From: Candidatus Altiarchaeota archaeon
Lineage (GTDB): Archaea; Altiarchaeota; Altiarchaeia; IMC4; QMZM01
Direction: 5' to 3'
DNA: 14,028 nucleotides
Assembly: GCA_038891095.1 (NCBI GenBank)
Contig: JAWAEV010000013.1
Coordinates: forward strand, 1-14,028
Each line of letters starts with the position of its first letter. Within the stretch, counting starts at the first letter, position 1. Positions 1 to 14,028 of this stretch are shown here, one piece after another. The position numbers were made by a program, and so were the translations under genes. The notes under the pieces are model-generated. The model was not told the DNA's origin, did no database searches, and saw only the letters and a list, made by a program, of their open reading frames with translations.

Positions 1-2013
1 CCCCTCAATCATACGCATTGTATATCTGTTGAGATTCCCGATTGTTGTAACTGTTTTGTTAGCAATATCCTCTCTTGTAAAGAAACCCTCAAAGTAAATA
101 GGTAAATGGAAAAAGCCAGATAACAAAGAAGCATTCAAGCCTACAGTATAGTTATTCTCAACAACAATAACATAATTTTTTACACTAAAGTAAGTATCAT
201 ACAACACAGAGAAATTTGTTACTTCAAAAAATCTAATTGTTGCTGATGGATTTAGATTATACCAATCAATTGTTGCTCTATTGTCTAAGATGTGTTGATC
301 TCTAAGCCAATAAGCAAGAACATCATCAAAGTTAGGGTGCATTCTTGTCCCGTTTGGAATGAAAATTGTTACATGCTTTGGTTTATATTTTTTCATAAAT
401 TCAATTGCTGAATCAATATCAAAATCTCCATTTGGCTCCTGATGATAAATAAGTAAAGGGTATTTTTTATCCGCATTAGAATTCTCTAAGGATGGCCAAA
501 GAACAATTGGCATTAATGAAAGTATAAGTTTCCAATCAGTATCTGGAACTAAAAAAACTTCTCTGTCTCTGTAAGCAGTTAAATTCCAAGAATTTTCCAC
601 TTCTCTAGGATCTGTTATAGCAGAAGCAGAAGTTATATTCTGTACTGGAAAACTGAAAATTTTTTCCATCCTTTTCGAGAATTTCATATTTCCTACATTA
701 TCACAAGAGCTTATATTAAGGTAAATTTCATATCTTTCATATGGTGGCTCACTTTTTGGAATTGAATAGGAGCATAAATCTGAATAACATTCCTTTGAAA
801 ATGTTTCAAAGAAAGGAAATTCCTCTTCATCACAAACTTCTACTATCTCAGGAATGCCGCGCTCTATTTCAACTGTTTCATTTCTGCAGTGGCCTCTTAG
901 CTTAATAATTTTTTTAATTAAACCATCAACTTTAACTCTTTTAATTCCTGAATCATCAAATGCTTTAACAATTAGCTCAATATTCTCCTTAGTTGTTGCA
1001 TTTATTGGGGAAAAATAGATGTCTACTTCAGGAGGATTAACTTCTATAGGCTTGAAAATAAAGTCAAATGAATTTTCATTGCTTAAATTAACAATTCCAA
1101 AACCTGCGAATGTTAAATTTCTATTCCAAAAATTTCCTCTCCATTCACAGACATCATCAAATTTCTGGTAGAATGGAACAATCATATAAACACCTAAACA
1201 CAAATTTTCAAATTTATATGAGTTATGAGATGAAAGATTAACATATCGCTCTGTGCCTCTTTTACATATCCAGTTAATTTCTCTTGAAATTAAATCAGTT
1301 TCTCTAACTCCTATGGGAACAAATTGCAGATGAAATTCTGGTGTTATCCCAACAGGGGAGTAAGAAAATTCTGTGTCAATATCAACTCTCTCCTGAATTT
1401 CTGAAGAGAGTTTTTCAACTTCGCATAGTGAAATAGATAATGTCTTTGGGTGATAGGTAAAATTCATAATTTTTCCACCAATTGAATAAAAGCAACCTCT
1501 ATGCTCTATCGGCTTTATAGGATATTTGACTATAGAAATCGTGGTTGTAGTTGTTTTTTGTGTTGTTGTAGTTATTCTCTTTACCATTGTTGATGTTGTT
1601 GTGATTGTAGTGAAAGTTTTAATTTTTGTGCAAGTGCATTTATCTTTATATAAAATACAAATTTCTCCCTTTGGACAAATTCCTTGAGAGCAAAATTGTG
1701 GTTTCATTAATGAGCAAGTATATTCACCTAAGGTAGTAGTTGTTGAAGTTATTATCGTAGTTGTTGAAGTTACTTGCTTTAATTTCACGCATGTGCATGA
1801 ATTACTACTCGGCATTAACTCGCAAGAATAACCTATAGGACAAGTTCCTTTCATGCATGAAGGTGGTTTCATTGAACTGCAGGTATAGAAAATTAACCCA
1901 TTGACATTAAAATTCAAATGGATAGCAGTCAAAAATGCTAAGAGGAACACTACTAAAAATTTATTCAAATTTAATTGAAAAAACTCTCTGTGTTTTAGTT
2001 TTAATGGGAACAT
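1..2013 (-). CDS. Large secreted/surface protein (partial, runs off the left edge; at least 671 aa): signal peptide, two 6-Cys modules with Thr-rich linkers, beta-rich region, cell-wall-binding-2-like region
   Basis: Manual translation from ATG at 2013 is open to position 1 (MFPLKLKHREFFQLNLNKFLVVFLLAFLTAIHLNF...RYTMRMIEG). It has a hydrophobic N-terminus, YTCSxMKP..C..G.CP.G..C..CTC twice, and poly-Thr linkers. VIVVENNYTVGLNASLLSGFFHLPIYF resembles a CW_binding_2-type motif. Absent from the ORF track because no stop lies in the window. Confidence 0.9.
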   Translation of the reverse strand, partial: MFPLKLKHREFFQLNLNKFLVVFLLAFLTAIHLNFNVNGLIFYTCSSMKPPSCMKGTCPIGYSCELMPSSNSCTCVKLKQVTSTTTIITSTTTTLGEYTCSLMKPQFCSQGICPKGEICILYKDKCTCTKIKTFTTITTTSTMVKRITTTTQKTTTTTISIVKYPIKPIEHRGCFYSIGGKIMNFTYHPKTLSISLCEVEKLSSEIQERVDIDTEFSYSPVGITPEFHLQFVPIGVRETDLISREINWICKRGTERYVNLSSHNSYKFENLCLGVYMIVPFYQKFDDVCEWRGNFWNRNLTFAGFGIVNLSNENSFDFIFKPIEVNPPEVDIYFSPINATTKENIELIVKAFDDSGIKRVKVDGLIKKIIKLRGHCRNETVEIERGIPEIVEVCDEEEFPFFETFSKECYSDLCSYSIPKSEPPYERYEIYLNISSCDNVGNMKFSKRMEKIFSFPVQNITSASAITDPREVENSWNLTAYRDREVFLVPDTDWKLILSLMPIVLWPSLENSNADKKYPLLIYHQEPNGDFDIDSAIEFMKKYKPKHVTIFIPNGTRMHPNFDDVLAYWLRDQHILDNRATIDWYNLNPSATIRFFEVTNFSVLYDTYFSVKNYVIVVENNYTVGLNASLLSGFFHLPIYFEGFFTREDIANKTVTTIGNLNRYTMRMIEG
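1618..1887 (-). repeat. Two tandem Cys-rich protein modules (1777-1887 and 1618-1722) separated by a Thr-rich linker
   Basis: YTCSSMKPPSCMKGTCPIGYSCELMPSSNSCTCVKLK versus YTCSLMKPQFCSQGICPKGEICILYKDKCTCTKIK, with all six Cys conserved. Confidence 0.85.
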
Positions 2014-2039
2014 AAAATTTGTAGTTATAGATAAATAGG

Positions 2040-2053
2040 TATAAATTTATAAA
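2040..2053. promoter_or_regulatory. Divergent (bidirectional) archaeal TATA region
   Basis: The perfect palindrome TATAAATTTATA (2040-2051) gives TTTATA on both strands, about 27 nt upstream of the minus-strand ATG at 2013 and about 40 nt upstream of the plus-strand ATG at 2093. Confidence 0.55.
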
Positions 2054-2092
2054 AAACCAATAATAACAAAAGATAACAAAGGAAAATGCAAA

Positions 2093-2920
2093 ATGACAGA
2101 AAGAATAACCCTTGAGCTTAAGGACGAAGATGCATTAGTTTTAGAGCATTTAATAGACAAGAAAAAAATAAAAAACAAAAAGGAAGCGATTATGTTGATA
2201 ATAAGAAATTCTATTGCAAAAATTTTTATAAAAGAAGCATTTATTTTAGCTGGTGGTAAAGGCACTAGAATGAGACCGTTCACTTATGAAATTCCCAAAG
2301 CTTTAATACCTGTTAAAGGAAAACCTATTCTTGAATACATTCTCGAACTACTGAGGAAATATGAAATAAGAAATGCTATAATCTCTGTTGGATATTTAGG
2401 CCAAAAAATTCAGGAGTATTTTGGTGATGGCTCAAAATTTGGAATGAATATTACCTATATCGAAGAAAGAGAAGAATTTGGAACTGCTGGACCTTTAAGA
2501 TTAGCAGAAGAAAAGCTGAGAAGACCTTTTCTTATGTTCAATGGTGATGTTCTCTCAAATATAAATTTAAACAAATTGATAAAATTTCATTTATTGCATA
2601 AAGGTTTAGCAACAGTAACCTTAGTTAAGGTTCCGGATGTTTCAAATTTTGGAACTGTTAAGATGGATGGCAATAAAATTTCTCAATTTGTAGAGAAGCC
2701 AAATATTTGCTGTGAGGGCTTCATAAATGCTGGAATTTATGTTCTCGATCCAAAAGTTATCAGCTATGTACCCAAAGGATTTTCAATGATTGAAAAAGAT
2801 GTTTTTCCAAGATTGGCTTCTGAAGGCAAACTATTTGGCTACAAGTTTCAAGGTCAGTGGTTTGATACTGGAACTCATGAAGCTTATGAAAAAGCAATAA
2901 AGGAGTGGAAGGGAATTTAA
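2093..2920 (+). CDS. Sugar-1-phosphate nucleotidyltransferase (NTP_transferase, mannose-1-phosphate guanylyltransferase-like) with N-terminal ribbon-helix-helix-like extension
   Basis: Motifs ILAGGKGTRMRPFT..PKALIPV, EFGTAGPL, NGDVL, FVEKP, INAGIY, WFDTGT. The first ~43 aa (ERITLELKDEDALVLEHLIDKKKIKNKKEAIMLII) fit a beta-alpha-alpha RHH pattern. Confidence 0.9.
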   Translation: MTERITLELKDEDALVLEHLIDKKKIKNKKEAIMLIIRNSIAKIFIKEAFILAGGKGTRMRPFTYEIPKALIPVKGKPILEYILELLRKYEIRNAIISVGYLGQKIQEYFGDGSKFGMNITYIEEREEFGTAGPLRLAEEKLRRPFLMFNGDVLSNINLNKLIKFHLLHKGLATVTLVKVPDVSNFGTVKMDGNKISQFVEKPNICCEGFINAGIYVLDPKVISYVPKGFSMIEKDVFPRLASEGKLFGYKFQGQWFDTGTHEAYEKAIKEWKGI

Positions 2921-2957
2921 TTTAAGTTAAAATTTATCCAGATAAAACATTATAAAA

Positions 2958-4310
2958 ATGTCAATTTTCAGAGCATATGACATAAGAGGAATTTTCGGCA
3001 AAGATCTGACTTTGGAAATAGCTGAAAATATCGGAAAAGCTTTTGGAGTATATATTGGCAACAAAGGAGAAGTTGTTGTAGGAAGAGATTGTAGATTAAG
3101 TTCTCCTGAGCTAAGAGAGGCTATTGTTAATGGTTTGACCTCTTCTGGGTGTGATGTTCTTGACATTGGTATGGTGCCAACACCAGTTTTTTACTTTACT
3201 GTTCGTCATTACAAAAAATGTGCTGGAGTTATGATAACTGGCTCGCATAATCCTCCAGAATATAATGGCTTCAAACTTTGTAAAGGAGAGCATACTTTAT
3301 ATGGCGAAGAAATTCAAGAATTGAAGAAGATAATAAAAAGAAAAAAATTTAAAAAAGGAAATGTTAATGGATATGTAAAAGAGCAGGATGTTACTCAAAG
3401 CTATATAAATTTTTTGAAGAAGAAAATAAAGATAAAAAGAAAATTAAAAGCAGTTGTAGACCCTGGAAATGGAACCTCAGGGCCAATTGTTAGGAGGTTA
3501 TTCAAAGAGTTAGGTTGCGATATAATTGAATTGAACTTTGAGCCAGATGGCAGATTTTTAGCACATTTTCCTGACCCAACAGTTGACAAAAATTTAGAGC
3601 AGTTAATTAAAGCAGTAAGAGATGAAAATGCAGATTTAGGTATAGCATATGATGGCGATGCTGATCGTTTGGGCTTAGTAGATGATTTAGGTAATATTGT
3701 GCGAGGAGATCAAGCACTAATTTTGTTCTCAAGAGAAATTTTAAAGAAAAACAAAAGAGCTAAAATAATTTTTGAAGTAAAATGCTCTCAAGCATTAATT
3801 GAGGAAATTGAAAAGAATGGTGGCATTGGGATTATGTATCGCACAGGGCATTCTTTCATAAAGAAAAAAATGAAAGAGGAAAATGCTTTGCTTGCTGGAG
3901 AGATGTCAGGACATTTTTTCTTTAGAGATAATTATTATGGCTACGATGATGGAATTTTTGCATCTGCAAGGATGTTAGAATTACTTTCAAAAACTGAAAA
4001 GAAGTTCTCAGATTTAGTCAGAGAAATTCCAAAATATTTTTCAACTCCTGAGATAAGGATTCACTGCCCTGATAATGAGAAATTTAGAGTTGTTGAAGAG
4101 CTAACAAAAAATTTTCAACAGAAGGGTTATGATGTCATTACAGTTGATGGTGCAAGAATCCAATTTAAAGATGGTTGGGGTTTAGTTAGAGCATCAAATA
4201 CCGAGCCTGCCCTGATCTTAAGATTTGAAGCAAAAACAGAAGAAAATTTAGGAAGAATAGAAAATTTAATTAAAGAGGAATTAAGAAAGTTTCTATCATT
4301 ACAGCTTTGA
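2958..4310 (+). CDS. manB: Phosphomannomutase/phosphoglucomutase (AlgC/ManB-type alpha-D-phosphohexomutase)
   Basis: N-terminal IFRAYDIRG, catalytic TGSHNPPEYNGFK, metal loop DGDADR, sugar loop GEMSGH, C-terminal RASNTEP. Confidence 0.95.
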   Translation: MSIFRAYDIRGIFGKDLTLEIAENIGKAFGVYIGNKGEVVVGRDCRLSSPELREAIVNGLTSSGCDVLDIGMVPTPVFYFTVRHYKKCAGVMITGSHNPPEYNGFKLCKGEHTLYGEEIQELKKIIKRKKFKKGNVNGYVKEQDVTQSYINFLKKKIKIKRKLKAVVDPGNGTSGPIVRRLFKELGCDIIELNFEPDGRFLAHFPDPTVDKNLEQLIKAVRDENADLGIAYDGDADRLGLVDDLGNIVRGDQALILFSREILKKNKRAKIIFEVKCSQALIEEIEKNGGIGIMYRTGHSFIKKKMKEENALLAGEMSGHFFFRDNYYGYDDGIFASARMLELLSKTEKKFSDLVREIPKYFSTPEIRIHCPDNEKFRVVEELTKNFQQKGYDVITVDGARIQFKDGWGLVRASNTEPALILRFEAKTEENLGRIENLIKEELRKFLSLQL

Positions 4311-4368
4311 GTGATGAAAATTTTATCTCTGAACCAAAACTGGTTGTGATGAAACTTATGAGCGCTGA
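4311..4368 (+). ncRNA. Archaeal box C/D methylation guide sRNA (D guide complementary to a CAU anticodon loop; sR-tMet-like)
   Basis: Box C GTGATGA 4311-4317, 11-nt guide AAATTTTATCT, D' CTGA 4329-4332, short hairpin AACCA/TGGTT, C' GTGATGA 4346-4352, 12-nt guide AACTTATGAGCG, D CTGA 4365-4368. It fills the 60-nt gap between convergent genes. Confidence 0.88.
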
Positions 4369-4370
4369 TT

Positions 4371-5027
4371 TTATAGTATATCAAAGCTAAAGTCATGAAG
4401 ATTTATAATTGGTTTATCAAAATAATCTTCAGAAATTCTTGGACATGCTGTATTTAGCCACAAATCAACTTTAAATCCTAGTAATTTTTCTGGAGAAATT
4501 TCATCTCCAACAAATATAAATGCTTTTCTACCCTTTTTCTCAATTTGTTTTTTTATTTCAATAGCTTTTTTAAAGTTAAACTGATTTGTCTTTGTTGAAA
4601 CAAGAATTCCAAAAACTTTTGCAGAAAGTGCCTTTAAAATTGCTGCTTTTTTTCTTGCAATATACTTTTTTCTTTCATCATCTGAAATTTCATCTATGGA
4701 GTTAGTGTATGGATTAAAAATAATAACTGGTTTTTCAGTTCTTGCTGAGATTCCTAAAGCATGAAATTTTCCAGAGCCTATATAGATGAAGACATCGACT
4801 TTGTTTTTAACTTTTTCAATTTTTCCAAAACTACAACCCAAAATTTGTCCAAAAGCCACTACTTTTTTTCCTTTGCTCTGAAGAAATTTCTTTACTTTAC
4901 TTAGCTGTGCTAAATGTTGTGTAGTTGTAAATAGAGCAACTCTCTCATATTTTTCAATTTTTTTCAGAATTTTCTCATTAAGAAAAATTTTCTTTTTTGA
5001 ATAACAAGGGATAAAAAGAATTTTCAT
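4371..5027 (-). CDS. dph2: Diphthamide biosynthesis protein Dph2 (short form)
   Basis: Motifs FTTTQH, GQILGC, YIGSGKFH, GILVSTK..Q, NTACPRI..D..F.KPII. At 218 aa it is shorter than canonical archaeal Dph2. Confidence 0.88.
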   Translation of the reverse strand: MKILFIPCYSKKKIFLNEKILKKIEKYERVALFTTTQHLAQLSKVKKFLQSKGKKVVAFGQILGCSFGKIEKVKNKVDVFIYIGSGKFHALGISARTEKPVIIFNPYTNSIDEISDDERKKYIARKKAAILKALSAKVFGILVSTKTNQFNFKKAIEIKKQIEKKGRKAFIFVGDEISPEKLLGFKVDLWLNTACPRISEDYFDKPIINLHDFSFDIL

Positions 5028-5031
5028 GACA

Positions 5032-7899
5032 CTAAGTTTTTTTCTTTAACTCAACTTCCTTAAGCACATTTTTTATATCATGCGCAACATCTTCTTGCTC
5101 AGACCACTGAAGCTTTGCTATTGGCAATTTATCCAGTTTTGTTTCAATTATATAATGTAAAATTCTTTTTTCTTTCATACCAAGAGTGCCAAGATACCAC
5201 TTGGCGACTTTATCTTTCAATTTTTCATCAAAACCATCATGTGTTATAACATCAAGATTAGTTGCATCATCTGGCAATGGATCAATAACATAAACATCCT
5301 TTATTGGGGTTCTCTGGTTATTTTTTACTGTTAGATAGACAAAAACCTTTTTATTCTTTCTGGAAACTACTTTTTTTATTTCTGGCCCTCTACTTGGGGA
5401 TTCTTCACTTGTTATTTCCTTTAAACCTATAGAAGAGATATCAACCTTTTCTGAAATTTTTTTGCCCTCAATTTTTTCTCTCAATTTATCTTCAACTTTA
5501 GTGCTAAAAATAGGTGATATAGTATCAACATTAGCTACTAATTTTTTTTCATCTGTGACATTAGGGATTTCCTTTACAATCGTGACTTTTGGTTTCTCAC
5601 TTATAGTGCTTTCTTTTTTAATTTCAATCTTAGCTTCATCCTTAAATTTACTCTCATATTCCGAATTTATTCTTGGTTCAAGTGACTCAAGATAAAGTTT
5701 TGCAACATCAAAGCTGCCTTTTTTAACATTATCAAATGCTAAATTTAGCTCCAATTCTAAATCAAACACATCAACACCCACTTCTTTAAGTTTTTCTATT
5801 TTATCCTTGAGTTCTTCTATTTTTATGTTAAATTTATCATATCTCTCAAGCTCTTTATCACTAATTCTCTGAACACTATGTAGAATAGGTCTAAATGAGA
5901 TGAAATATGGTCTGCCTTTATTATACTCAGCATTTTGCAGCATTCCAGTACCAACTGCAGCCTTTACAACAGACCTTAAAATGTCTTCACCATACTTCAT
6001 TTTAATTCTTTCTAAGTCACCTTCATACCTTGCCCTCATCTGAATTTCTGTTCCAATGTTTGCTTTTATTTCTCCTACAAAATCTGAAAGAACTTGTGAT
6101 ATGAGGATAACTCCTAAGCCCCACTTCCTAAACTCTCTGACAGCATGCTCTACTTGAGTTAGACCATTGCCTGAGCCACCAAATTTAGGTAGCAATCTAT
6201 GAACTTCATCTATTATTATTAATGTTTTCAACTCATAAGTTTCTTCAAAACCACCAAGGAATACATCTCTAATAGCATTACTTATAAATGTCTCTATCTC
6301 AGGCGTCTCCAATTTATTCAGGCAGAAAACAGTAATCTCTCCTGGCTTTTGATATTTTTTAATGTCAATTTTTTTATTTGGATCTTTTACTATGTAAATA
6401 TTCCCATTAAATGCCCTAGCATCTTTTTCTTTCATTCCAAATTTTCCATACAAGGCAAACATTCCTTTGTCTTTATTTTTTCTAAGAAATCCTGTCCACT
6501 GAGCTGTTGGATCAAAAACTATAGCTGAGACATTTCTTTGTAAAGCTTCTTCAACAAGAACTTGTGCAGCAATTGTTTTTCCAGAACCAGTTGCTCCTGC
6601 TATTAGAACATGGGTTGTTAGCTTATCTATATCAAAAAATGCTCTCATAGCTGTTTCAGCTAATCTTCCAAGGAATCCTGCTCTTGGACCTGGCTGCGGT
6701 AAGGTACGCATTTCAATTGTTTCAAGATATCTGCGTTTTCTTGCTTCTTCTCTTTTGTGTAGGATATAGACTATAAAGAGAATGAAAATTAGTACTAAAG
6801 AACTTAATATCATCCATATAGGAATTCCAAAAATTGCAAATTCAAATAAAGAACGCTTTACTGTTATGGAACATGTTGCTAGCTCTCTTACCTTCACACC
6901 CTCTCTTGAGAATTCAGCTATTCCTCTGATTATATATCTGCCTTCAGGGATATCTTTTGATAAATTTATTTCTGTAATTACAGAAGTTGATGTTTCAACA
7001 CTCGCCTTTTGTGTTTGCTCTATAATTATATTATTACTTATTGGCTCAATAAGTTGGATTATCAAATCTAAATCTATTTTCCCAGAACCGCCGAGATTAT
7101 AGAGAGTTGTATCTACTCTTAAAGTCTGTCCTGGAGAAATCATCTCTGTGACAGGACTAACTTTTATATCTAAAATTTTCTCTCTTGATTGCAGAACTCT
7201 TATAGTTACTGGAACTACAGGTAAACTAATATTTCCAGAATTTATGATAATGTTTCCATAATATAATCCAGGTGGAGTCCCTGGAGGGATATATACACTT
7301 AAATTTATATGTCCTTCTGCTCCAGAAGGCAATGTTAATGTTGGGTTTTCTATATTTATTAGATCTGCAACAGTTCCATCAACTTTTGATGAAATAATTT
7401 TAGTTGAATTCAGATTATTTTTCACTAAAATCATAGTTGGAAGGTAATCACCAGGATCTAAATCGAAACTTATTGCCTGCGAGAGAACTTGTAAAGTTCC
7501 GCCTTTAGATTCTGATATTAAATTGTTTAGATTATTATGAATTTCATTAACTGTATTTCTCATTTGTTGGATTTCAGTATCAGTCGCTTCTCTGATTTTA
7601 GCAAGATTATCTTGAATTTCTTCTATTGATTTCCAAATTGATGTTGTGTCTATAGTAGCATTTGTTGTTTTATTTAGAGAAGAAAGCATTTCCTTGATTG
7701 TAGAAATCTCTCTTTCAATTCCAGAGATGTCTACTCTTCCACCACCAGCATATGGCGGGATAGTTATAGTTGTTGCAGTAGGTTGAAGATAATAATTATC
7801 ACCATAGTCAATCTCGTAATATGTACCATTCTGAACATAAGCAAAAACAAACACAGACATCAAAAGAATTGCTAATACTGTTTTATATACAATTTTCAT
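5032..7899 (-). CDS. Membrane-anchored HerA/FtsK-superfamily (DUF87-like) P-loop ATPase with extracellular coiled-coil and Ig-like domains
   Basis: Signal peptide (MKIVYKTVLAILLMSVFVFA), heptad-like region, beta-rich Ig-like segments, TM helix (IPIWMILSSLVLIFILFIVYIL) followed by a basic stretch. ATPase motifs: HVLIAGATGSGKT (Walker A 6574-6597), IVFDPTAQW, LIIIDEVH (Walker B 6199-6219), REFRKWGLGVILISQ. Confidence 0.88.
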   Translation of the reverse strand: MKIVYKTVLAILLMSVFVFAYVQNGTYYEIDYGDNYYLQPTATTITIPPYAGGGRVDISGIEREISTIKEMLSSLNKTTNATIDTTSIWKSIEEIQDNLAKIREATDTEIQQMRNTVNEIHNNLNNLISESKGGTLQVLSQAISFDLDPGDYLPTMILVKNNLNSTKIISSKVDGTVADLINIENPTLTLPSGAEGHINLSVYIPPGTPPGLYYGNIIINSGNISLPVVPVTIRVLQSREKILDIKVSPVTEMISPGQTLRVDTTLYNLGGSGKIDLDLIIQLIEPISNNIIIEQTQKASVETSTSVITEINLSKDIPEGRYIIRGIAEFSREGVKVRELATCSITVKRSLFEFAIFGIPIWMILSSLVLIFILFIVYILHKREEARKRRYLETIEMRTLPQPGPRAGFLGRLAETAMRAFFDIDKLTTHVLIAGATGSGKTIAAQVLVEEALQRNVSAIVFDPTAQWTGFLRKNKDKGMFALYGKFGMKEKDARAFNGNIYIVKDPNKKIDIKKYQKPGEITVFCLNKLETPEIETFISNAIRDVFLGGFEETYELKTLIIIDEVHRLLPKFGGSGNGLTQVEHAVREFRKWGLGVILISQVLSDFVGEIKANIGTEIQMRARYEGDLERIKMKYGEDILRSVVKAAVGTGMLQNAEYNKGRPYFISFRPILHSVQRISDKELERYDKFNIKIEELKDKIEKLKEVGVDVFDLELELNLAFDNVKKGSFDVAKLYLESLEPRINSEYESKFKDEAKIEIKKESTISEKPKVTIVKEIPNVTDEKKLVANVDTISPIFSTKVEDKLREKIEGKKISEKVDISSIGLKEITSEESPSRGPEIKKVVSRKNKKVFVYLTVKNNQRTPIKDVYVIDPLPDDATNLDVITHDGFDEKLKDKVAKWYLGTLGMKEKRILHYIIETKLDKLPIAKLQWSEQEDVAHDIKNVLKEVELKKKT

Positions 7900-7920
7900 T
7901 CTGTCTTATCTAAATTTATT

Positions 7921-7954
7921 AAATATTTTGTATATGAGCATATAAACCTTTCGC
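7921..7954 (-). promoter_or_regulatory. BRE-TATA promoter of the ATPase gene
   Basis: Minus strand reads GCGAAAGG TTTATATG CTCATATA CAAAATATTT, with the TATA box about 40 nt upstream of the ATG at 7899. Confidence 0.75.
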
Positions 7955-7983
7955 TCTCTGATTTCCAGTTTAAAAAATCCGTC

Positions 7984-8003
7984 AAAAAAGAAAAAAAGAA
8001 AAA
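7984..8003 (-). terminator. Oligo(T) archaeal terminator-like tract
   Basis: TTTTTCTTTTTTTCTTTTTT on the minus strand, just after the stop codon of the 722-aa gene. Confidence 0.55.
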
Positions 8004-8008
8004 TTAGA

Positions 8009-10177
8009 TTATGCAGTGAATATCGTTGTCTCTGTAGTGCACTTGTATTTTTGCTCATCAAATACTGGACCTTCACAGAGTGTTATTGAAAGTTCATAGT
8101 CTCTACCTTTAATAAGGTTTAATTGTTTCTCTTCTCCAATTCTTAGTTCATAAATTCCATTACTAATGACATCATTGAAAATTTGTGCCCAAGAAGCTAA
8201 TGGTGTATAAGTATCGGTTATAACAACTTTCAAGCTTCCATGTAATAAATTCCTTTCACCTTTTAATGTTAAAATTGTTGGTGTTGGTAACTTTTGTGCA
8301 TAGCCTTCATCAATTTTCTCATTGTCTACATATATATTATCTTTATCTGCTGTAACGCTACCAACACCTGTTCCTTGTAGCTCATCATAAGTATCTTCAA
8401 TAACCTCTATTGAGCCTATAGGCCCACGAGCATGAGTTACCCATACATACTCTGGATCAATTTCAACTTCTCTAACAACAGTATAATTGCCTATACTAAG
8501 TGATGGTCTAAGAGAGATATTTAGGGTGTAATTAAATGTTGGTCTCACGATATATTGAGCAACTAAGGGATTACAATAAGGCTCAACATTCTTGAATTCT
8601 CTATTCTGGTTAACACAAGTTTGATTTATATAAGGATCAGTTGCACTCCATCTGAGGAACCAGAATTTCCATCTTATTGGCAAGTAGTCAGTTGAATCGA
8701 ATCCTTGCTTCAATGGAACTGTAATGTTGTAGAATATGGTTATGTTTGCTACTCCACTCAAAAATCTTCCAGTCATGTTTTCAAAGCGTATCACTTGGTC
8801 ATTTCTTCTTACAAATCTTTCCCATATCCAGTGTGTTGTTGTATTTATCTCTGTGACAAAAATTTTGACTGTGTTTAAAGTTGAATTAACAACAAGGACA
8901 TGATATGTTATGTTATCTAACTTCTCACATAATGCATCTTGTACATAATTTGCAGTACAATTTGTCATATTTCTAATTTCTCCAGCTTTTAAATTTATTT
9001 CTTCTAAAGTAACATTCATTCCAAGTAATCTTGCATGTAGGCTATTGTTTGTATTTGTTATTAACTCTACAATAGTATCATTGTGTGAAAACAGCTCATT
9101 TTCCATTCTTGTTATGTTCTCTCTTAAGAATTGTGTCCAGTTCATTATATACTTTAGTCTCTGGCAAATTGAGTAATTTTCTTGATTAACTATTGCATAG
9201 TCAGAACAATTTAATGTATTATAAATCCAGTCAGTATCATTTAAAATTTTTGAAATGTTTTCATTCATTCCTTGTAAATATGGATAAACAGTTCCTGTGA
9301 GATAGTCATAAATGTTTGTTGTATTGTATTGAGTTGCTCTTAAAAATCTTAAAGCTGCTGATGAGGTATAAATTATTGCATAATCTAAAGCAAATGCATT
9401 GTCATAGACTTCTAAAACAAATGTGTTTTGTCCTGTTTGTAGTATACTCACATTCACTATCTCAGTTTTCATAGCTTCAGAACTTCTGTCAAAATTCCAG
9501 TTTTTGAATACATAGTAACCATTTATTGAAAGATTTACCCTAGTTGTTGCTGAAGTTCCATAAGGTGCTGTGATCAATTCGACTGTTAAGTTATCTAAAG
9601 GTATTTGCTCAAGATAGAAATAATATGTTCTTGAAGTTCCTGTTGAGAGAACCTCATAAATTTTATCATGAGATGTCAAATTCTGATCAACAGTTGTAAG
9701 ATCATTGGAAACAACATACAAATTCTTACCAAAACTTGTAAGAATATTACCGGTTAATTTCTTTGTTAAAGTTGCTGTTAAATTTGTTGAATAAGTAGTT
9801 GCATTTATCTCTCTCAAGAATTCTAAGGAGCTAATATTTAACTTCTGCAATGTTGTGTTTATTAAATCTAAATACCAGCATTTTGTTCCAACCTCTGCAA
9901 TATGGTTATCCTTAGTACAGTTCTCTCTATCAAATAGATATGAAACATTCCAAAGAGTTCTCCATGTTGTGTAATTTATCTCTGCTAAGTAATCATACAC
10001 ATCAGGAACATAAACATCTTCTGTTACAGTGACATTTCTTAACTCTCCTGATGAAGAGCCAACAATATTCTCAGAAAATACAAAATTAGATGCAAACAAA
10101 GCTAAGAACACTAAAGCTAAAAAACTAACCATAAGAGCCCCGCTAAATACCCTGCCAATTTTATTTATTTGTTCCAT
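8009..10177 (-). CDS. Secreted coiled-coil glycoprotein with probable beta-sandwich (CBM-like) insert and conserved C-terminal domain; function unknown
   Basis: N-terminal hydrophobic signal, many N-x-S/T sequons, amphipathic helices broken by Cys pairs (NCSDYAIVNQENYSIC, NCTANYVQDALC). The C-terminal ~90 aa are homologous to those of the 824-aa protein, and 8393-8503 is homologous to the ORF at the right edge. Confidence 0.85.
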   Translation of the reverse strand: MEQINKIGRVFSGALMVSFLALVFLALFASNFVFSENIVGSSSGELRNVTVTEDVYVPDVYDYLAEINYTTWRTLWNVSYLFDRENCTKDNHIAEVGTKCWYLDLINTTLQKLNISSLEFLREINATTYSTNLTATLTKKLTGNILTSFGKNLYVVSNDLTTVDQNLTSHDKIYEVLSTGTSRTYYFYLEQIPLDNLTVELITAPYGTSATTRVNLSINGYYVFKNWNFDRSSEAMKTEIVNVSILQTGQNTFVLEVYDNAFALDYAIIYTSSAALRFLRATQYNTTNIYDYLTGTVYPYLQGMNENISKILNDTDWIYNTLNCSDYAIVNQENYSICQRLKYIMNWTQFLRENITRMENELFSHNDTIVELITNTNNSLHARLLGMNVTLEEINLKAGEIRNMTNCTANYVQDALCEKLDNITYHVLVVNSTLNTVKIFVTEINTTTHWIWERFVRRNDQVIRFENMTGRFLSGVANITIFYNITVPLKQGFDSTDYLPIRWKFWFLRWSATDPYINQTCVNQNREFKNVEPYCNPLVAQYIVRPTFNYTLNISLRPSLSIGNYTVVREVEIDPEYVWVTHARGPIGSIEVIEDTYDELQGTGVGSVTADKDNIYVDNEKIDEGYAQKLPTPTILTLKGERNLLHGSLKVVITDTYTPLASWAQIFNDVISNGIYELRIGEEKQLNLIKGRDYELSITLCEGPVFDEQKYKCTTETTIFTA

Positions 10178-10229
10178 TTTAATTTTATTTTTACTTTTTG
10201 AATTTTTTATTTTGAACTTTCTTAGGGGT

Positions 10230-10265
10230 TTAAAAATTTTGCATTTGAGTATAAATACTTTTCGG
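10230..10265 (-). promoter_or_regulatory. BRE-TATA promoter of the 722-aa gene
   Basis: Minus strand reads CCGAAAAG TATTTATA CTCAAATG CAAAATTTTTAA. Confidence 0.7.
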
Positions 10266-10269
10266 TTTT

Positions 10270-10536
10270 TTAAACTTTTATCTCTTTGACACGGAAGTAT
10301 TTTACAACTGTTTTTGTTGTTGGATCTATTAGCAGCATTATTCCTTCTTTTTCTGAGTTATATTCAACTTTGTAGATTTCTTTTGAGTTTATATTAGAGT
10401 AGATTGCTGGTGAAGTTGCAATCAATGAGCGAAGAGCAGTTTCATCTAAGAAGGTTACTTTTGATTTATAAAGAGGATTTTCTCTCATGAACTCTTTTGT
10501 TAAGGGATGCTGCGAGGCTATCTTTAAAATTTCCAC
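10270..10536 (-). CDS. Small PepSY-like domain protein; paralog of 10606-11037 lacking the membrane anchor (possibly a 5'-truncated remnant)
   Basis: 46/88 identities without gaps (hand count) to the C-terminal domain of the upstream 143-aa protein. The start is GTG. Similarity continues a few codons upstream (KFTD versus KLTD) towards an in-frame TGA at 10564-10566. Confidence 0.6.
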   Translation of the reverse strand: MEILKIASQHPLTKEFMRENPLYKSKVTFLDETALRSLIATSPAIYSNINSKEIYKVEYNSEKEGIMLLIDPTTKTVVKYFRVKEIKV

Positions 10537-10605
10537 ATCTGTAAATTTTAATTTTGTGTTAGCTCAGAGCTCAGCTAAAGTTTGTGGAATGCACAACTTG
10601 AAAAT

Positions 10606-11037
10606 TTAGAAGGAAATTTCCTTAACTCTGTAGTATTTTAAAATTTTTTGTGTTTCAGGGTCAAGTAGAAGAAGTATGCCTTCATCCCTTGCTTTATATT
10701 CCACCTTATAAAGCGCTCTAACATTTAGGCCCCCATAAATTGCTGGCGCTGTTGCTGCTAAAGATTTTAGCATTGTCGCATCAACAAAGGTTATCTTTGT
10801 TTCATATTTTGGATTTCTTGCAACAAAGTCTTTTGTTATTGGCTCTCTGCTTGTAATAGATAAAATTTGTGCATCTGTAAGTTTTTTCGCCTCAATAGGC
10901 TTCTCTTTTTCTTTGGAGAGCATTGGTAAAACAAAAATTACAAATAAAATTACTGCTATAACTAAAGCAACTGCAAAAATAATTTTTGGTTCGACTGGGA
11001 ATTTAAATTCCTTCTTTTCAGATTTCTGAAGTGTCAT
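10606..11037 (-). CDS. Single-pass membrane protein with C-terminal PepSY-like domain
   Basis: TM helix IIFAVALVIAVILFVIFVLPML. YKVEY...ILLLLDPETQKILKYY resembles a PepSY-type strand pattern. It starts 13 nt after the stop of the 824-aa gene. Confidence 0.8.
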   Translation of the reverse strand: MTLQKSEKKEFKFPVEPKIIFAVALVIAVILFVIFVLPMLSKEKEKPIEAKKLTDAQILSITSREPITKDFVARNPKYETKITFVDATMLKSLAATAPAIYGGLNVRALYKVEYKARDEGILLLLDPETQKILKYYRVKEISF

Positions 11038-11050
11038 TTTATGCTACATT

Positions 11051-13525
11051 TTATGCTATAAAATATGTTGTGAAAGTCTCGCAAGTGTAGAGTGTTGGAT
11101 CAAATGTTATTCCATCACAAACCGTTATATCCCTTTTATATTTTCTTTTTGGAATTAAACTTAAATCATGAGTACCGCCAATCATTATGTTGAACATATT
11201 ATCATGTATGATATCGTTATATTCATGACTCCAAATAACAAATGGCACATAAGCATCTGTTATATTTACCTGAATACTTCCGACTGAAAGATAGTCATTT
11301 GTGCCCTTTCTTTTAACTTTACCTTGTAAAATTAAAACTGTTGGTATTGGTTGTGTGTATGAGAAATTTCCCCATTTAACCTCATTTATATAATTTACCA
11401 TATTTAAAGTTTCATGGATTGTTCTATTTACTTCTGCTAATAAATCAGCTAAAGAGCCACCTCCAGTGGTTGCGTTTTGTATTAATTCTAAACGATAGCA
11501 AACATCTGAAGGATTAACTGATGTGCAATTAAATTCAATAATTAAACTTTCTACATAATCATGGATTGTTGTTATGTTTGAAAGCAATATATTAACTTTT
11601 GAAGCAATATAAGTTGCATTGTTCAATGTGTCAATTGTTGTTATGTTAATTATTTCAATTAGAGTATTTATATCGCTAATTTTTTTGCATATATCATTCT
11701 CAGAGTTATCACAATCTAATGCTTCAAAAATTGCAGTTGTGTTAGCATTAATTGCATTTATAGTTGTTTCAATATCAAGCAATTTATCCCATATAGTTTT
11801 ATTATGGTCAGTTAAAATTTCTCTTAATAACGAGAGATTACTTTCTATTCTTTCAGCGTAATTGCAAAGGTCAGAGTTGTTGCCAAGATTAGAGCAGTTT
11901 AACATATCTTGAATTTTATTTACTGAGGATTGCAAGTTAGAGATGTATTCACAAATAGGTGAGTCATCAATCCCATCACAATCTAACATCTTTGAAATTG
12001 CGGATGTATCTAAGGTTATAGTGACATTTAAATCAAAGCCAACTTTGAAGCCAGATGTTGCTTGAGTTTTCTTTCCAAGAGGATCAGCCTCAATTAGGAC
12101 AGCATAACTACCATGAAATGCATTTGATGGTATAGTCCAGCTATAGTAATACCACCCAGTTGAAATTTTATTCATTGCAATTGAGTTTAAATCATAAATT
12201 ATTGAAGAACCATTCCAATGAATTACTGTTAAATTTATATATGTATCTGGCTCAATAGGCTCCCCATGGAAAGTTATTAATGCGTATGCTGTTATAGTGT
12301 TGCCTTCCCCATAAATTGTGTCAAGCCCAGCAATACTTATCATAGATGAGGTTCTGTTAATATAGCTAAGTGTAGTGTCAATTCTATGAGTTGTTGTATT
12401 AATCTCATTTAATATTCCGAGCAAAGGACCTGTCGCATTTTGTATTAACTCTAAACGATAGCAAACATCTGAAGGATTAACTGATGTGCAATTAAATTCT
12501 TTTATGAGAATTTCCAAATAGTTTTTCACATCACTAACATTTGAAAGAAGTTCTCTAAGCTGAGGAAGCATTAATGTGACATTATCTAATGTTTTATGTG
12601 TTGTTGAATTCACTTCTTCAAGGAAAATTCTCAACTCATTAACTTTCTTGCAGACATCATTTTCAGAGTTATCACAATCAAGAGCTTCTGATATATTTTC
12701 AACATATGATCTTATTGTATTTGATGTTGATTCTATCAACAATAATTTATTCCACATTGAATAATTCACATCTCTAAGCAAGTTTCTAAGGTCAGAAATA
12801 TTTGTTTCTAAATTTTTTGTGTAGTTACAAATATCTGAATTGTTGCCATTATTTTCACAATTTAGCATATCAAGGATAATTGAAGTTATATTATTCATGT
12901 TTTTCGTATATTCACAAATAGGTGAGTCATCAATCCCATCGCAGTCCATTTGTTCTGTTATTAAGGAAGTGTCAACACTAATTGTCGCATTTATTGTAAA
13001 TCCAACTTTGAAGCCAGATGTTGCTTGAGTTTTCTTTCCAAGAGGATCAGCCTCAATTAAAATGCTATAAGTGCCCTGATGCTTTATGCCAGAAGGAATT
13101 GTCCAATTTAGATAATACCACCCAACAAAAATTTTCGTCATTTGAGTTGAATTTAAGTAAAATTGTAAAGATGAACCATTCCAATGAACTATTGTAATGT
13201 TGCAATATGACTCAGGATCAACTGGGGCTCCATGTAAAGTTATTGATGCAAAAATTGCTATATTGTCACCTTCACCATAGATAGTGTTAACTCCGCCAAT
13301 TGTTATTATTGGCAAAGATCTATTGCTCTGATTTTTTATTTCTTGGATATCAAGCCATTGGGAATATTCATCAGGTCTTGAAATATTTTCAGTCGCTGAA
13401 AATGTTGAGCAATTTGGACCCACACAATTATCAGGAGAAGTTACACTAATAAGTAAAAAGACAGCTACAAGTGAGGAGTATAATAGCAAAAATTCTCTAA
13501 AAAAATTTCGCTTATTTTTTTCCAT
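11051..13525 (-). CDS. Secreted glycoprotein with two ~321-aa repeats (Ig-like domain plus Cys-punctuated coiled coil) and conserved C-terminal domain; function unknown
   Basis: Signal-like N-terminus, duplicated TIYGEG...EADPLGKKTQATSGFKVGF...DCDGIDDSPICEY...NCTSVNPSDVCYRLELIQNAT, and about 38 N-x-S/T sequons by hand count. Confidence 0.88.
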   Translation of the reverse strand: MEKNKRNFFREFLLLYSSLVAVFLLISVTSPDNCVGPNCSTFSATENISRPDEYSQWLDIQEIKNQSNRSLPIITIGGVNTIYGEGDNIAIFASITLHGAPVDPESYCNITIVHWNGSSLQFYLNSTQMTKIFVGWYYLNWTIPSGIKHQGTYSILIEADPLGKKTQATSGFKVGFTINATISVDTSLITEQMDCDGIDDSPICEYTKNMNNITSIILDMLNCENNGNNSDICNYTKNLETNISDLRNLLRDVNYSMWNKLLLIESTSNTIRSYVENISEALDCDNSENDVCKKVNELRIFLEEVNSTTHKTLDNVTLMLPQLRELLSNVSDVKNYLEILIKEFNCTSVNPSDVCYRLELIQNATGPLLGILNEINTTTHRIDTTLSYINRTSSMISIAGLDTIYGEGNTITAYALITFHGEPIEPDTYINLTVIHWNGSSIIYDLNSIAMNKISTGWYYYSWTIPSNAFHGSYAVLIEADPLGKKTQATSGFKVGFDLNVTITLDTSAISKMLDCDGIDDSPICEYISNLQSSVNKIQDMLNCSNLGNNSDLCNYAERIESNLSLLREILTDHNKTIWDKLLDIETTINAINANTTAIFEALDCDNSENDICKKISDINTLIEIINITTIDTLNNATYIASKVNILLSNITTIHDYVESLIIEFNCTSVNPSDVCYRLELIQNATTGGGSLADLLAEVNRTIHETLNMVNYINEVKWGNFSYTQPIPTVLILQGKVKRKGTNDYLSVGSIQVNITDAYVPFVIWSHEYNDIIHDNMFNIMIGGTHDLSLIPKRKYKRDITVCDGITFDPTLYTCETFTTYFIA
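11380..13309 (-). repeat. Intragenic tandem duplication, period 963-966 bp
   Basis: Identical blocks at a 963-bp offset: 12039-12096 = 13002-13059 (58 bp), 11487-11536 = 12450-12499 (50 bp), 11946-11977 = 12909-12940 (32 bp), 11700-11716 = 12663-12679 (17 bp). Outer boundaries are approximate. Confidence 0.92.
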
Positions 13526-13530
13526 TGTTA

Positions 13531-13566
13531 ATTAAAATTTATCATTTGAGTTTTTATACTTTCCTT
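13531..13566 (-). promoter_or_regulatory. BRE-TATA promoter of the 824-aa gene (probably leaderless transcript)
   Basis: Minus strand reads AAGGAAAG TATAAAAA CTCAAATG ATAAATTTTAAT, with the TATA box ending 25 nt upstream of the ATG at 13525. Confidence 0.7.
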
Positions 13567-13571
13567 TTTCA

Positions 13572-14027
13572 TTACTTGTTATACCATTTATCTTTCATTT
13601 GCTCTCCGCCTTTAGATTTTTTCTTTTCAATTAGGATAAATAAAATTAATAAAGCAGTTATCGCAACTGGTAAAACAGTATAAAGGTCCAAATTTAATTT
13701 CCAGCTTTCTCTTTCTTTTGCTGACTTAGCTAATGCTGCTATGACCTTTGCTCTTTTTTCAGTTGTTGTTGTAATTTGTTGAGTTGTTGTTATAGGTAAT
13801 AAAATTTGTATTACATATGGCTCTTTCTTCTCTTCTGTAGGTATAGCCATTGTTAATGCTTCTTTCTCTTGCTCAAGAAGCTCTGGCATAGTAACATTGA
13901 TCAATGGCTCAAAATTATCTTCGAGAACAGTTATATTTCCGATAGGACCGTGAGCATAGCTAAGCCATACTTGTTCTGGATCAACTTCAAGCTCTCTGAT
14001 CATAGTATAGTTACCTCTTTTTAGAGA
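13572..14027 (-). CDS. C-terminal part of a membrane-anchored surface protein related to the 722-aa protein (5' end outside the window)
   Basis: The frame is open to the window edge (SLKRGNYT-MIRELEVDPEQVW...), so ATG 14003 is internal. 23/37 identities to SLSIGNYTVVREVEIDPEYVWVTHARGPIGSIEVIED of the 722-aa protein. Thr-rich linker, TM helix VLPVAITALLILFILI and basic tail EKKKSK. Confidence 0.85.
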   Translation of the reverse strand, partial: SLKRGNYTMIRELEVDPEQVWLSYAHGPIGNITVLEDNFEPLINVTMPELLEQEKEALTMAIPTEEKKEPYVIQILLPITTTQQITTTTEKRAKVIAALAKSAKERESWKLNLDLYTVLPVAITALLILFILIEKKKSKGGEQMKDKWYNK

Positions 14028-14028
14028 A

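Follow-up and report, generated by a model that had tools for sequence, protein, structure and literature searches.

The stretch of DNA analysed here, hereafter the window, is 14,028 nucleotides long (positions 1 to 14,028 of the forward strand of contig JAWAEV010000013.1, assembly GCA_038891095.1) and comes from a Candidatus Altiarchaeota archaeon. Its gene at 5032..7899 on the minus strand, read from an ATG start, encodes a 955-residue protein, P0001, which we describe as a compact SPEARE-type membrane-anchored HerA-like ATPase, predicted to expose a helical stalk and two β-sandwiches outside the cell and to carry, beyond a single transmembrane (TM) helix, a RecA-like motor domain in the cytoplasm. 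This architecture is already known as that of a large, published family. What the present analysis adds is an ATPase placed nearest to HerA and DndH with VirB4 close by, the lack of a HAS barrel and the presence of two sandwiches in the conserved core, as well as lineage-specific upstream glycoproteins that share a domain of ~170 residues, and a patchy occurrence. The explanation we favour as a whole is that P0001 is probably a compact SPEARE-family membrane protein with a cytoplasmic motor of the HerA/VirB4 branch.

Kyte-Doolittle hydropathy gives P0001 two hydrophobic segments, at residues 3–25 and ~353–381 (peak 361–379), the second followed directly by the basic cluster HKREEARKRRY. The 330 residues between them hold seven N-x-S/T sequons and the 574 residues beyond hold two. 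Among 116 homologs the median distance from the end of the TM segment to Walker A is 53 residues, and 115 of them have no hydrophobic segment past Walker A. Family-wide, Lys and Arg together average 5.5 in the 15 residues after the TM segment as against 1.6 before it, and sequons number 2.28 per 100 residues outside versus 0.24 inside, with the outside density higher in 109 of 115 homologs. An N-terminal hydrophobic segment is present in 60 of the 116, many of the others being partial proteins. Hydropathy, structural model, homolog topology and sequon densities all bear out the layout proposed in an earlier note on this DNA, made from the sequence alone, of an outside region, one TM helix and a cytoplasmic ATPase. 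The N-terminal hydrophobic segment in which that note saw a signal peptide is present as well, and may be a signal anchor instead of a cleaved peptide, P0001 being either a bitopic or a type-I membrane protein.

The full-length AlphaFold2 model, computed on a 40-sequence alignment, has a mean predicted local distance difference test score (pLDDT) of 77.8 (all P0001 coordinates below are on the minus strand). It begins with a helix at residues 2–22 within the N-terminal hydrophobic segment (residues 1–25, 7825..7899), which is followed by disorder at 20–55 and by helices 59–78 and 86–129, predicted to form an external, coiled-coil-like stalk (59–129, 7513..7725). Two juxtamembrane β-sandwiches come next, at residues 136–235 (7195..7494) and 243–347 (6859..7173), supported by model, Foldseek and homolog coverage; Foldseek matches them to tandem fibronectin type III (FnIII)/immunoglobulin (Ig)-like proteins such as RbmA (E 3e-12). 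The coiled coil and Ig-like domains that the earlier note placed within ~330 external residues thus have their counterparts in the model. The TM helix and its basic cytoplasmic extension span residues 353–394 (6718..6843), modelled as one long helix at 361–394, and lead into the α/β ATPase core at 407–669 (5893..6681), where means over 10-residue blocks of pLDDT are mostly ~83–96 and fall to 63–76 around 601–650. About 275 residues lie past the ATPase: a cytoplasmic helical or coiled-coil region (681–765, 5605..5859, of which 681–750 is conserved), a linker with disorder at 759–824, a predicted cytoplasmic β-sandwich (826–933, 5101..5424; block means mostly ~70–88) and a helix at 937–954. The domain order given in the earlier note was correct; it overlooked this C-terminal coiled coil and sandwich. 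The C-terminal sandwich is weakly DUF11-like (Pfam E 0.0043, under the model cut-off) and is common only to the three closest relatives. DUF11/CARDB-type domains are usually extracellular.

The catalytic motifs of the ATPase core, which is assigned to the FtsK-HerA superfamily by Pfam, PDB profile and structure alignment, are all in place. Walker A (GATGSGKT, residues 435–442, 6574..6597) and Walker B (LIIIDE, 560–565, 6205..6222) are evident in the sequence and in the homolog alignment, REFRKWG (588–594, 6118..6138) brings R591 into register with the Arg of GRKFG in Sulfolobus HerA, and a sensor-type ISQ (600–602, 6094..6102) lies past the strand that follows the arginine motif. R591 is presumably the arginine finger. 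Walker A, Walker B, FRKWG (590–594) and ISQ are invariant in the 40 aligned homologs, so that the R-K-x-G and ISQ motifs reported earlier as intact are indeed so, and the 123 residues counted then between the Walker A Lys and the Walker B Asp are those from K441 to D564. This spacing is 122–125 in 113 of the 114 homologs with a recognisable Walker B. Judged from its conservation, the predicted ATPase is intact and under strong purifying selection.

Coverage was profiled over the 119 homologs that BLASTP aligned to P0001, and at least 90% of them cover residues ~151–750. Residues 1–125 are covered by just 4–18%, making the stalk a lineage-specific part, residues 776–955 by 3–13% and the C-terminal sandwich by 3–6%. 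All 36 non-close homologs cover sandwich 1 (mean identity 30%) and sandwich 2 (27%); mean identity to 36 homologs is 62% in the ATPase core and 50% in coiled-coil residues 681–750, the latter covered by 36 of 36. Since coverage across homologs takes in sandwiches, TM segment and coil, the core is wider than the ATPase: as read from these alignments, it takes in both predicted juxtamembrane sandwiches, the TM helix and the ATPase, along with the first helices of the coiled coil. The family sharing this core is large. Of the 7,997 candidates scored in a word-seeded search, 377 proteins reach E<=1e-3; a profile run against 1.84 billion representatives yields 491 clusters when cut at E<=1e-30 and 2,636 when cut at E<=1e-10 (lengths up to 6,253 residues), and a scan of species genomes gave at least 613 pattern matches, at least 610 of them encoding relatives. 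Core-sharing members range from ~650 to >6,000 residues and are mostly from DPANN archaea and Altiarchaeota, labels among the matches listed being Altiarchaeota, Woesearchaeota, Pacearchaeota, Micrarchaeota, Nanoarchaeota, Nanohaloarchaeota and Aenigmatarchaeota.

Pfam assigns P0001 to DUF87 (E 1e-11) and ResIII (E 3e-6). Over the 40 aligned members, DUF87 and HerA_C match 40/40, TrwB_AAD_bind 38/40, ResIII 35/40, AAA_10 30/40, FtsK_SpoIIIE 21/40 and T4SS-DNA_transf 11/40. Weak Pfam matches to DEAD, nSTAND3, AAA_22, Zot and Zeta_toxin were disregarded because they covered the P-loop region alone. A family profile searched against PDB sequences ranks HerA chains first (9X1L, 4D2I, 8WIV and 8XAU, E ~1e-7), with DotL at 0.0025. 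Structural comparison used residues 395–765 folded alone (pLDDT 89.3, predicted template modelling score 0.87). The Foldseek rows listed above rank 25 all belong to HerA; rank 25 itself is the STIV2 packaging ATPase B204, and VirB4 comes at 30, TcpA at 35 and FtsK at 40. VIA-align, searched against 48,161 representative chains, gives Z scores of 22.5 for the DndH C-domain, 22.4 for Sulfolobus HerA (4D2I), 20.4 for VirB4 (root mean square deviation 3.7 over 236 residues, ~2 Z units from HerA/DndH), 19.0 for Deinococcus HerA, 17.3 for TrwB, 15.5 for FtsK and 14.9 for EccC. Among NCBIfam models the best match is CedD (E 4.4e-10, 38.8 bits vs a cut-off of 600), confined to the P-loop region at 422–470, and there are weak matches to TraD, TraC and TraB; all scores for type IV secretion system (T4SS) models are far under their curated cut-offs, the HerA equivalog scores 21 bits against a cut-off of 800, and Pfam FtsK_SpoIIIE reaches 22.1 bits, under its 24-bit cut-off. 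From these profile and structure scores, on which the placement rests, we conclude that the P0001 ATPase lies on the HerA/VirB4 side of the FtsK-HerA superfamily, with HerA nearest by sequence and VirB4 structurally close.

In agreement with the earlier note, P0001 is nonetheless not a canonical HerA. Pfam finds no HAS barrel in P0001, and in the VIA-align superposition, which opens at 4D2I chain residue 110, right after the P0001 TM helix, that helix occupies the place of the barrel. The core is also shortened. Model residues 1–285 align to 4D2I 110–470, making the core ~75 residues shorter, and 48 profile positions stand against ~120 HerA chain residues between two matched blocks of the PDB profile alignment, in keeping with the reduced insertion suggested previously. 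Finally, the same genome has two separate soluble HerA-like genes, both on contig C1, which match NF040819 (E 1.9e-48 and 9.7e-83) and NF040937 (E 9.7e-41 and 3.4e-72), these scores likewise falling under cut-off; P0001 has no NF040819 match and reaches E 9.6e-5 with NF040937. The lack of a HAS barrel, the shortened core and these separate genes together set P0001 apart from canonical HerA. Pfam and NCBIfam scans of the 10 open reading frames (ORFs) of the window found no nurA, mre11 or rad50, so the absence of these neighbours holds as well.

Literature searched by way of HerA and DUF87 gave no account of the family of P0001. Its description lies elsewhere. In Hamm 2019 (PMC6642349), SPEARE proteins of nanohaloarchaea are very long, chiefly extracytoplasmic proteins whose TM domain lies close to the C terminus, the cytoplasmic C-terminal region being the best conserved and bearing 'type III restriction enzyme' domains; similar sequences are noted in Woese-, Aenigm- and Micrarchaeota and in Altiarchaeales, including versions of 655 and 717 residues. 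The ResIII matches of P0001 and of 35 of the 40 members fit that annotation. Reva 2023 (PMC10266531) describes 'giant membrane-anchored extracellular proteins' with a signal peptide, Ig-like repeats, a TM domain, a cytosolic ATPase and then a coiled coil, interprets the conserved cytoplasmic domain anew as a VirB4/TraG-like ATPase and proposes a type-IV-secretion-like role. Three giant ORFs with Nanohaloarchaeota labels (L024, L029 and L031; 2,116–3,530 residues) are 44–46% identical to P0001 over residues ~107–750. Going by these homologs and by matching descriptions, on which the assignment rests (the named accessions were compared by description only), P0001 very probably belongs to the SPEARE, or giant membrane-anchored, family.

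The likeness extends to the hydrophobic N terminus, the external region, the single TM segment, the ResIII-matching P-loop domain and the terminal coiled coil, and to the taxa concerned (Altiarchaeales, Woese-, Micr- and Aenigmarchaeota) and the short 655- and 717-residue versions. P0001 differs in size (955 residues vs 3,000–9,400) and in its external part, which has ~330 residues where Hamm 2019 gives a giant ectodomain with laminin-G and multiple adhesion domains and Reva 2023 gives ~75 Ig-like repeats. It differs further in its external helical stalk and its C-terminal cytoplasmic sandwich, and in that glycoprotein genes are encoded apart, upstream of P0001. The HerA-like helicases of arCOG00280, mentioned as virus-associated in Makarova 2014 (PMC4158269), are not the family of P0001.

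Other known systems share parts of this plan. With HerA (Sulfolobus 4D2I, Thermococcus 9X1L and the defence proteins SIR2-HerA and DUF4297-HerA), P0001 shares the RecA-like core, aligned Walker A and B motifs, the arginine motif (GRKFG/FRKWG), the SQ sensor, the DUF87 and HerA_C matches and the best Foldseek and VIA-align matches, but it is membrane-anchored with an ectodomain, and no SIR2 or DUF4297 neighbour was found among the window ORFs by Pfam or NCBIfam. VirB4 and the coupling proteins (TrwB/VirD4, TcpA, DotL) resemble it in superfamily, in Z score and in membrane association, TrwB having an N-terminal TM anchor directly before its ATPase; by contrast, neither the VirB4 N-terminal domain nor an all-alpha domain nor other T4SS genes were found for P0001, which has a large conserved ectodomain. 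CedB and CedD, of the DNA import system of Sulfolobales, are likewise membrane-anchored archaeal HerA-clade ATPases. CedD (PMC11868833) comprises a TM segment, a cytoplasmic N-terminal domain and the ATPase, with no ectodomain, whereas P0001 has one; its CedD match is that of the P-loop alone, and no CedA-like gene lies nearby.

The window is an entire 14-kb contig of a metagenome-assembled genome, a circumstance that could favour reading P0001 as an assembly chimera, or as a decaying gene without function. Against this stand the full-length homologs P0006 (956 residues, 85% identity, 100% cover), P0007 (1,026 residues, 58% identity, 100% cover) and P0008. The sequencing runs listed comprise four DNA runs from one hot-spring study, with no RNA run among them, and contigs of run X2, a second sample of that study, overlap to tile 4304–10247, and hence the whole gene, with ~1% substitutions and no indels; in the read layout, joints with sides of 20–24 letters were counted as spurious. 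The catalytic motifs are invariant and the reading frame is without stops. The P0001 gene is real and not an assembly chimera, an outcome that the earlier note had named as speaking against itself, and either a chimera or a decaying gene is extremely improbable.

The genomic setting was compared over 81 loci holding 85 ATPase genes (79 loci from the species-genome scan, the paralog of the same genome and the window). Locus ORFs were called by a simple longest-ORF rule and clustered by single linkage on BLASTP. In 47 of the 81 loci the same strand encodes a cytoplasmic coiled-coil protein of ~350–600 residues, mostly directly downstream (relative to the 85 ATPase genes, 29 at +1, 11 at +2 and 5 at +3). 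Eleven loci encode KaiC-like ATPases (Pfam KaiC E 7.8e-56), and a small ribbon-helix-helix-like protein with a large secreted protein lies upstream in ~13. The genome of the window has a second copy (C7:19624-22557), which encodes a protein of 977 residues with 48% identity to P0001, and its locus, C7:17975-24117, is more typical, having a KaiC-like gene upstream and a 498-residue coiled-coil gene downstream; a 283-residue membrane protein is also encoded upstream.

The feature that links the window to related loci lies upstream of the ATPase gene, in the predicted secreted protein P0002 (722 residues, 34 sequons, 8009..10177, minus strand). Residues 430–600 of P0002, a domain of ~170 residues, recur in the gene next to the ATPase on its upstream side in L011, L012, L021, L022, L033 and L042, and two genes upstream of it in L003. 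The domain-bearing gene overlaps the ATPase start by 10 nucleotides in five Altiarchaeales loci. P0002 homologs also lie on contigs equal in size to those bearing P0007 and P0008. Seven locus proteins end in a TM segment and a (K/R)W(Y)(E/N)K tail, all of them of the P0002 family, and most upstream relatives end so; P0002 itself, by hydropathy and sequence, has no TM segment or KKWYEK-type tail. In full, the ending is a TM segment, a basic stretch and (K/R)KWYEK or KDKWYNK, as seen at window 13572-14028 and in L003, L011, L012, L022, L033 and L042. The tail is predicted to be cytoplasmic and could be a docking motif. We rejected a genome-wide sorting signal for KWYEK-type tails, as the motif occurs only once in this genome and, in the loci, in the P0002 family alone. 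Complex prediction for P0001 136–352 with P0002 430–722 scored 0.00, which speaks neither for nor against binding. P0002 as a hamus subunit was rejected for want of evidence; PMC4460559, on the hami of Altiarchaeum, makes no mention of an ATPase, operon, genomic context, helicase or DUF87.

Between P0002 and the ATPase gene lie a T-rich tract (7984-8003), just past the P0002 stop, and a TATA-box-like element (TTTATATG, 7939..7946, minus strand), ~44 nucleotides upstream of the ATPase ATG, both read in the sequence. We infer from the letters that they are a terminator and a promoter, respectively, and the ATPase gene may have its own promoter.

Further upstream, two small paralogous ORFs of 88 and 143 residues occupy 10270..11037 on the minus strand (10270-10536 and 10606-11037; E 1e-32). 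An N-terminal TM segment is present in the 143-residue copy but not in the 88-residue one; neither matches a Pfam family, and in L003 the gene immediately upstream of the ATPase encodes a 156-residue homolog. They are followed at 11051..13525 (minus strand) by P0003, a predicted secreted protein of 824 residues with 38 sequons and an internal tandem duplication, residues ~70–395 repeating at ~396–720. Cys-containing motifs recur in it (DCDGIDDSPICEY, LDCDNSEND.CKK and FNCTSVNPSDVCYRLELIQNAT), and over its last ~100 residues it shares 40% identity with the P0002 C terminus. The 3' end of a further P0002-family glycoprotein gene, at 13572..14028 (minus strand), closes with the TM segment and KDKWYNK tail. 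In the same genome, a stretch in contig C10:9872-10978 (plus strand) is near-identical to window 13572-14027 (NYTMIRELEVDPEQVWLSYAHGPIGNITVLEDNFEP), and is either a recent paralog or the cause of the assembly break at the window end.

On its other side, the ATPase gene is followed by a Dph2-like gene (218 residues, 4371-5027, minus strand; Pfam), which starts 4 nucleotides past the ATPase stop on the same strand. Its product matches Diphthamide_syn at 64-287/302 and arCOG04112 at 72-293/308, leaving it ~70 N-terminal residues short. Since a 220-residue homolog (E 1e-67) is encoded in Altiarchaeota locus L042, this shortness seems to be a conserved trait and not a sign of a broken gene. At the far end, a secreted protein of at least 671 residues with 14 sequons runs off the window (1-2013, minus strand). 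It has duplicated Cys motifs (C..MKP..C..G.CP.G..C) with Thr-rich linkers between, no family match and no homolog in the 81 loci.

How might such a protein work? By analogy with solved relatives, it is likely that the active ATPase forms a hexameric ring under the membrane. Six TM helices would then meet at a single site, with twelve sandwiches forming a collar there, and the ring could move a polymer at the cell surface or where a host is contacted, nucleic acid being favoured by analogy with HerA, DndH, CedB/CedD and VirB4. Polymer movement is a tentative proposal, and we regard it as possible rather than probable. The adhesive part would in this lineage be supplied by the upstream glycoproteins, not by a giant fused ectodomain, and the adhesive function appears to have been split off into them.

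Several observations weigh against this picture, as does the basis of the family assignment given above. Hydropathy in the window and comparison of the 81 loci reveal no conserved polytopic membrane protein accompanying the ATPase, so that it is not apparent how a polymer would cross the membrane. The earlier note had proposed that an oligomer could form a membrane passage by itself or could couple binding on the outside to ATP hydrolysis; for a macromolecule pore, six single TM helices are a poor basis. The downstream coiled-coil partner is absent from the window, where the Dph2-like gene stands instead. Pfam finds no laminin-G domain, adhesin repeats, Ig-repeat array, protease-like or toxin-like region in P0001. 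Co-transcription of the ATPase with the glycoprotein genes is doubtful here, because the TATA-like element and T-tract lie between them. Occurrence is patchy too: the ATPase gene was found in 21 of the 61 related genomes, and in 4 of the 13 that are of high quality (within its own family in 13 of 21 genomes, and in 0 of 12 from the other two families of the class), and is thus an accessory gene among related genomes, not a universal one. The literature consulted on biochemistry of the family ATPase (activity, oligomer, substrate), which includes the preprint 10.1101/2023.02.24.529834, holds proposals alone in the parts available.

Several other accounts of the motor deserve weighing. It could be a type-IV-secretion-like export motor that passes effectors or DNA from a symbiont into a host held by the surface part, as Reva 2023 (PMC10266531) proposes for the giant forms. 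The structural closeness of VirB4 (Z 20.4 vs 22.4 for HerA), the TrwB_AAD_bind (38/40) and T4SS-DNA_transf (11/40) matches and the weak TraD, TraC and TraB matches in NCBIfam agree with it. Yet the sequence profiles favour HerA, with T4SS scores far under curated cut-offs; the VirB4 N-terminal domain, PF03135, finds no match in P0001 (Pfam scan, E<=0.01), and neither a VirB6/CedA-like polytopic protein nor a second VirB4-like ATPase occurs in the window or among clusters recurrent in the 81 loci. We consider export improbable.

The motor might instead work inward, in the manner of FtsK/SpoIIIE, on DNA or on a coiled-coil partner or scaffold, its TM helix and ectodomain serving for placement only; in keeping with this, no conserved channel partner was found. 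FtsK is itself a membrane-anchored relative acting on cytoplasmic DNA. Such a role would also suit the downstream coiled-coil protein of 47 of the 81 loci and the KaiC-like ATPases of 11, both of which accompany the paralog on C7. It leaves unexplained, however, why two juxtamembrane sandwiches are conserved in all members and why ectodomains grow to thousands of residues, and the FtsK_SpoIIIE score of 22.1 bits falls short of the 24-bit cut-off; this, too, seems unlikely to us. The genes upstream raise instead the idea of an assembly or anchoring machine, in which the motor would mount, hold or remodel P0002-family glycoproteins on the envelope. Conserved adjacency with 10-nucleotide overlaps in Altiarchaeales loci, the seven TM-and-tail proteins that all belong to the P0002 family and the three P0002-family genes upstream in the window argue for it, but the T-tract and TATA-like element separate P0002 from the ATPase gene, P0002 lacks TM segment and tail, the tail motif occurs once in the genome and giant fused forms need no separate cargo. 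We hold such a machine to be very unlikely.

A more far-reaching proposal would make the core module an autonomous envelope machine of DPANN archaea and Altiarchaeota, to which giant adhesin arrays are optional additions and whose ring powers contact-dependent uptake or hand-over of a polymer with no known channel protein involved. The window would then present a 'split' form, with adhesive and cargo parts as separate P0002-family glycoproteins, and the ring would hand over or take up DNA or protein. We think it improbable; if true, it would amount to a translocation principle unlike the T4SS, Ced and type VII secretion systems.

The favoured description of P0001, as a compact SPEARE-family membrane protein with a HerA/VirB4-branch motor, bears on a wider question: how DPANN archaea, which rely on contact with host cells, attach to them and exchange material. 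The SPEARE-type family is one of few conserved DPANN proteins that reach from surface to cytoplasm, and it carries a motor domain. P0001, at 955 residues, holds the entire conserved core at a size fit for expression, purification and imaging, and its cytoplasmic domain (395–765) is predicted at high confidence. On that domain the published annotations conflict, a restriction enzyme in one and a T4SS ATPase in the other.

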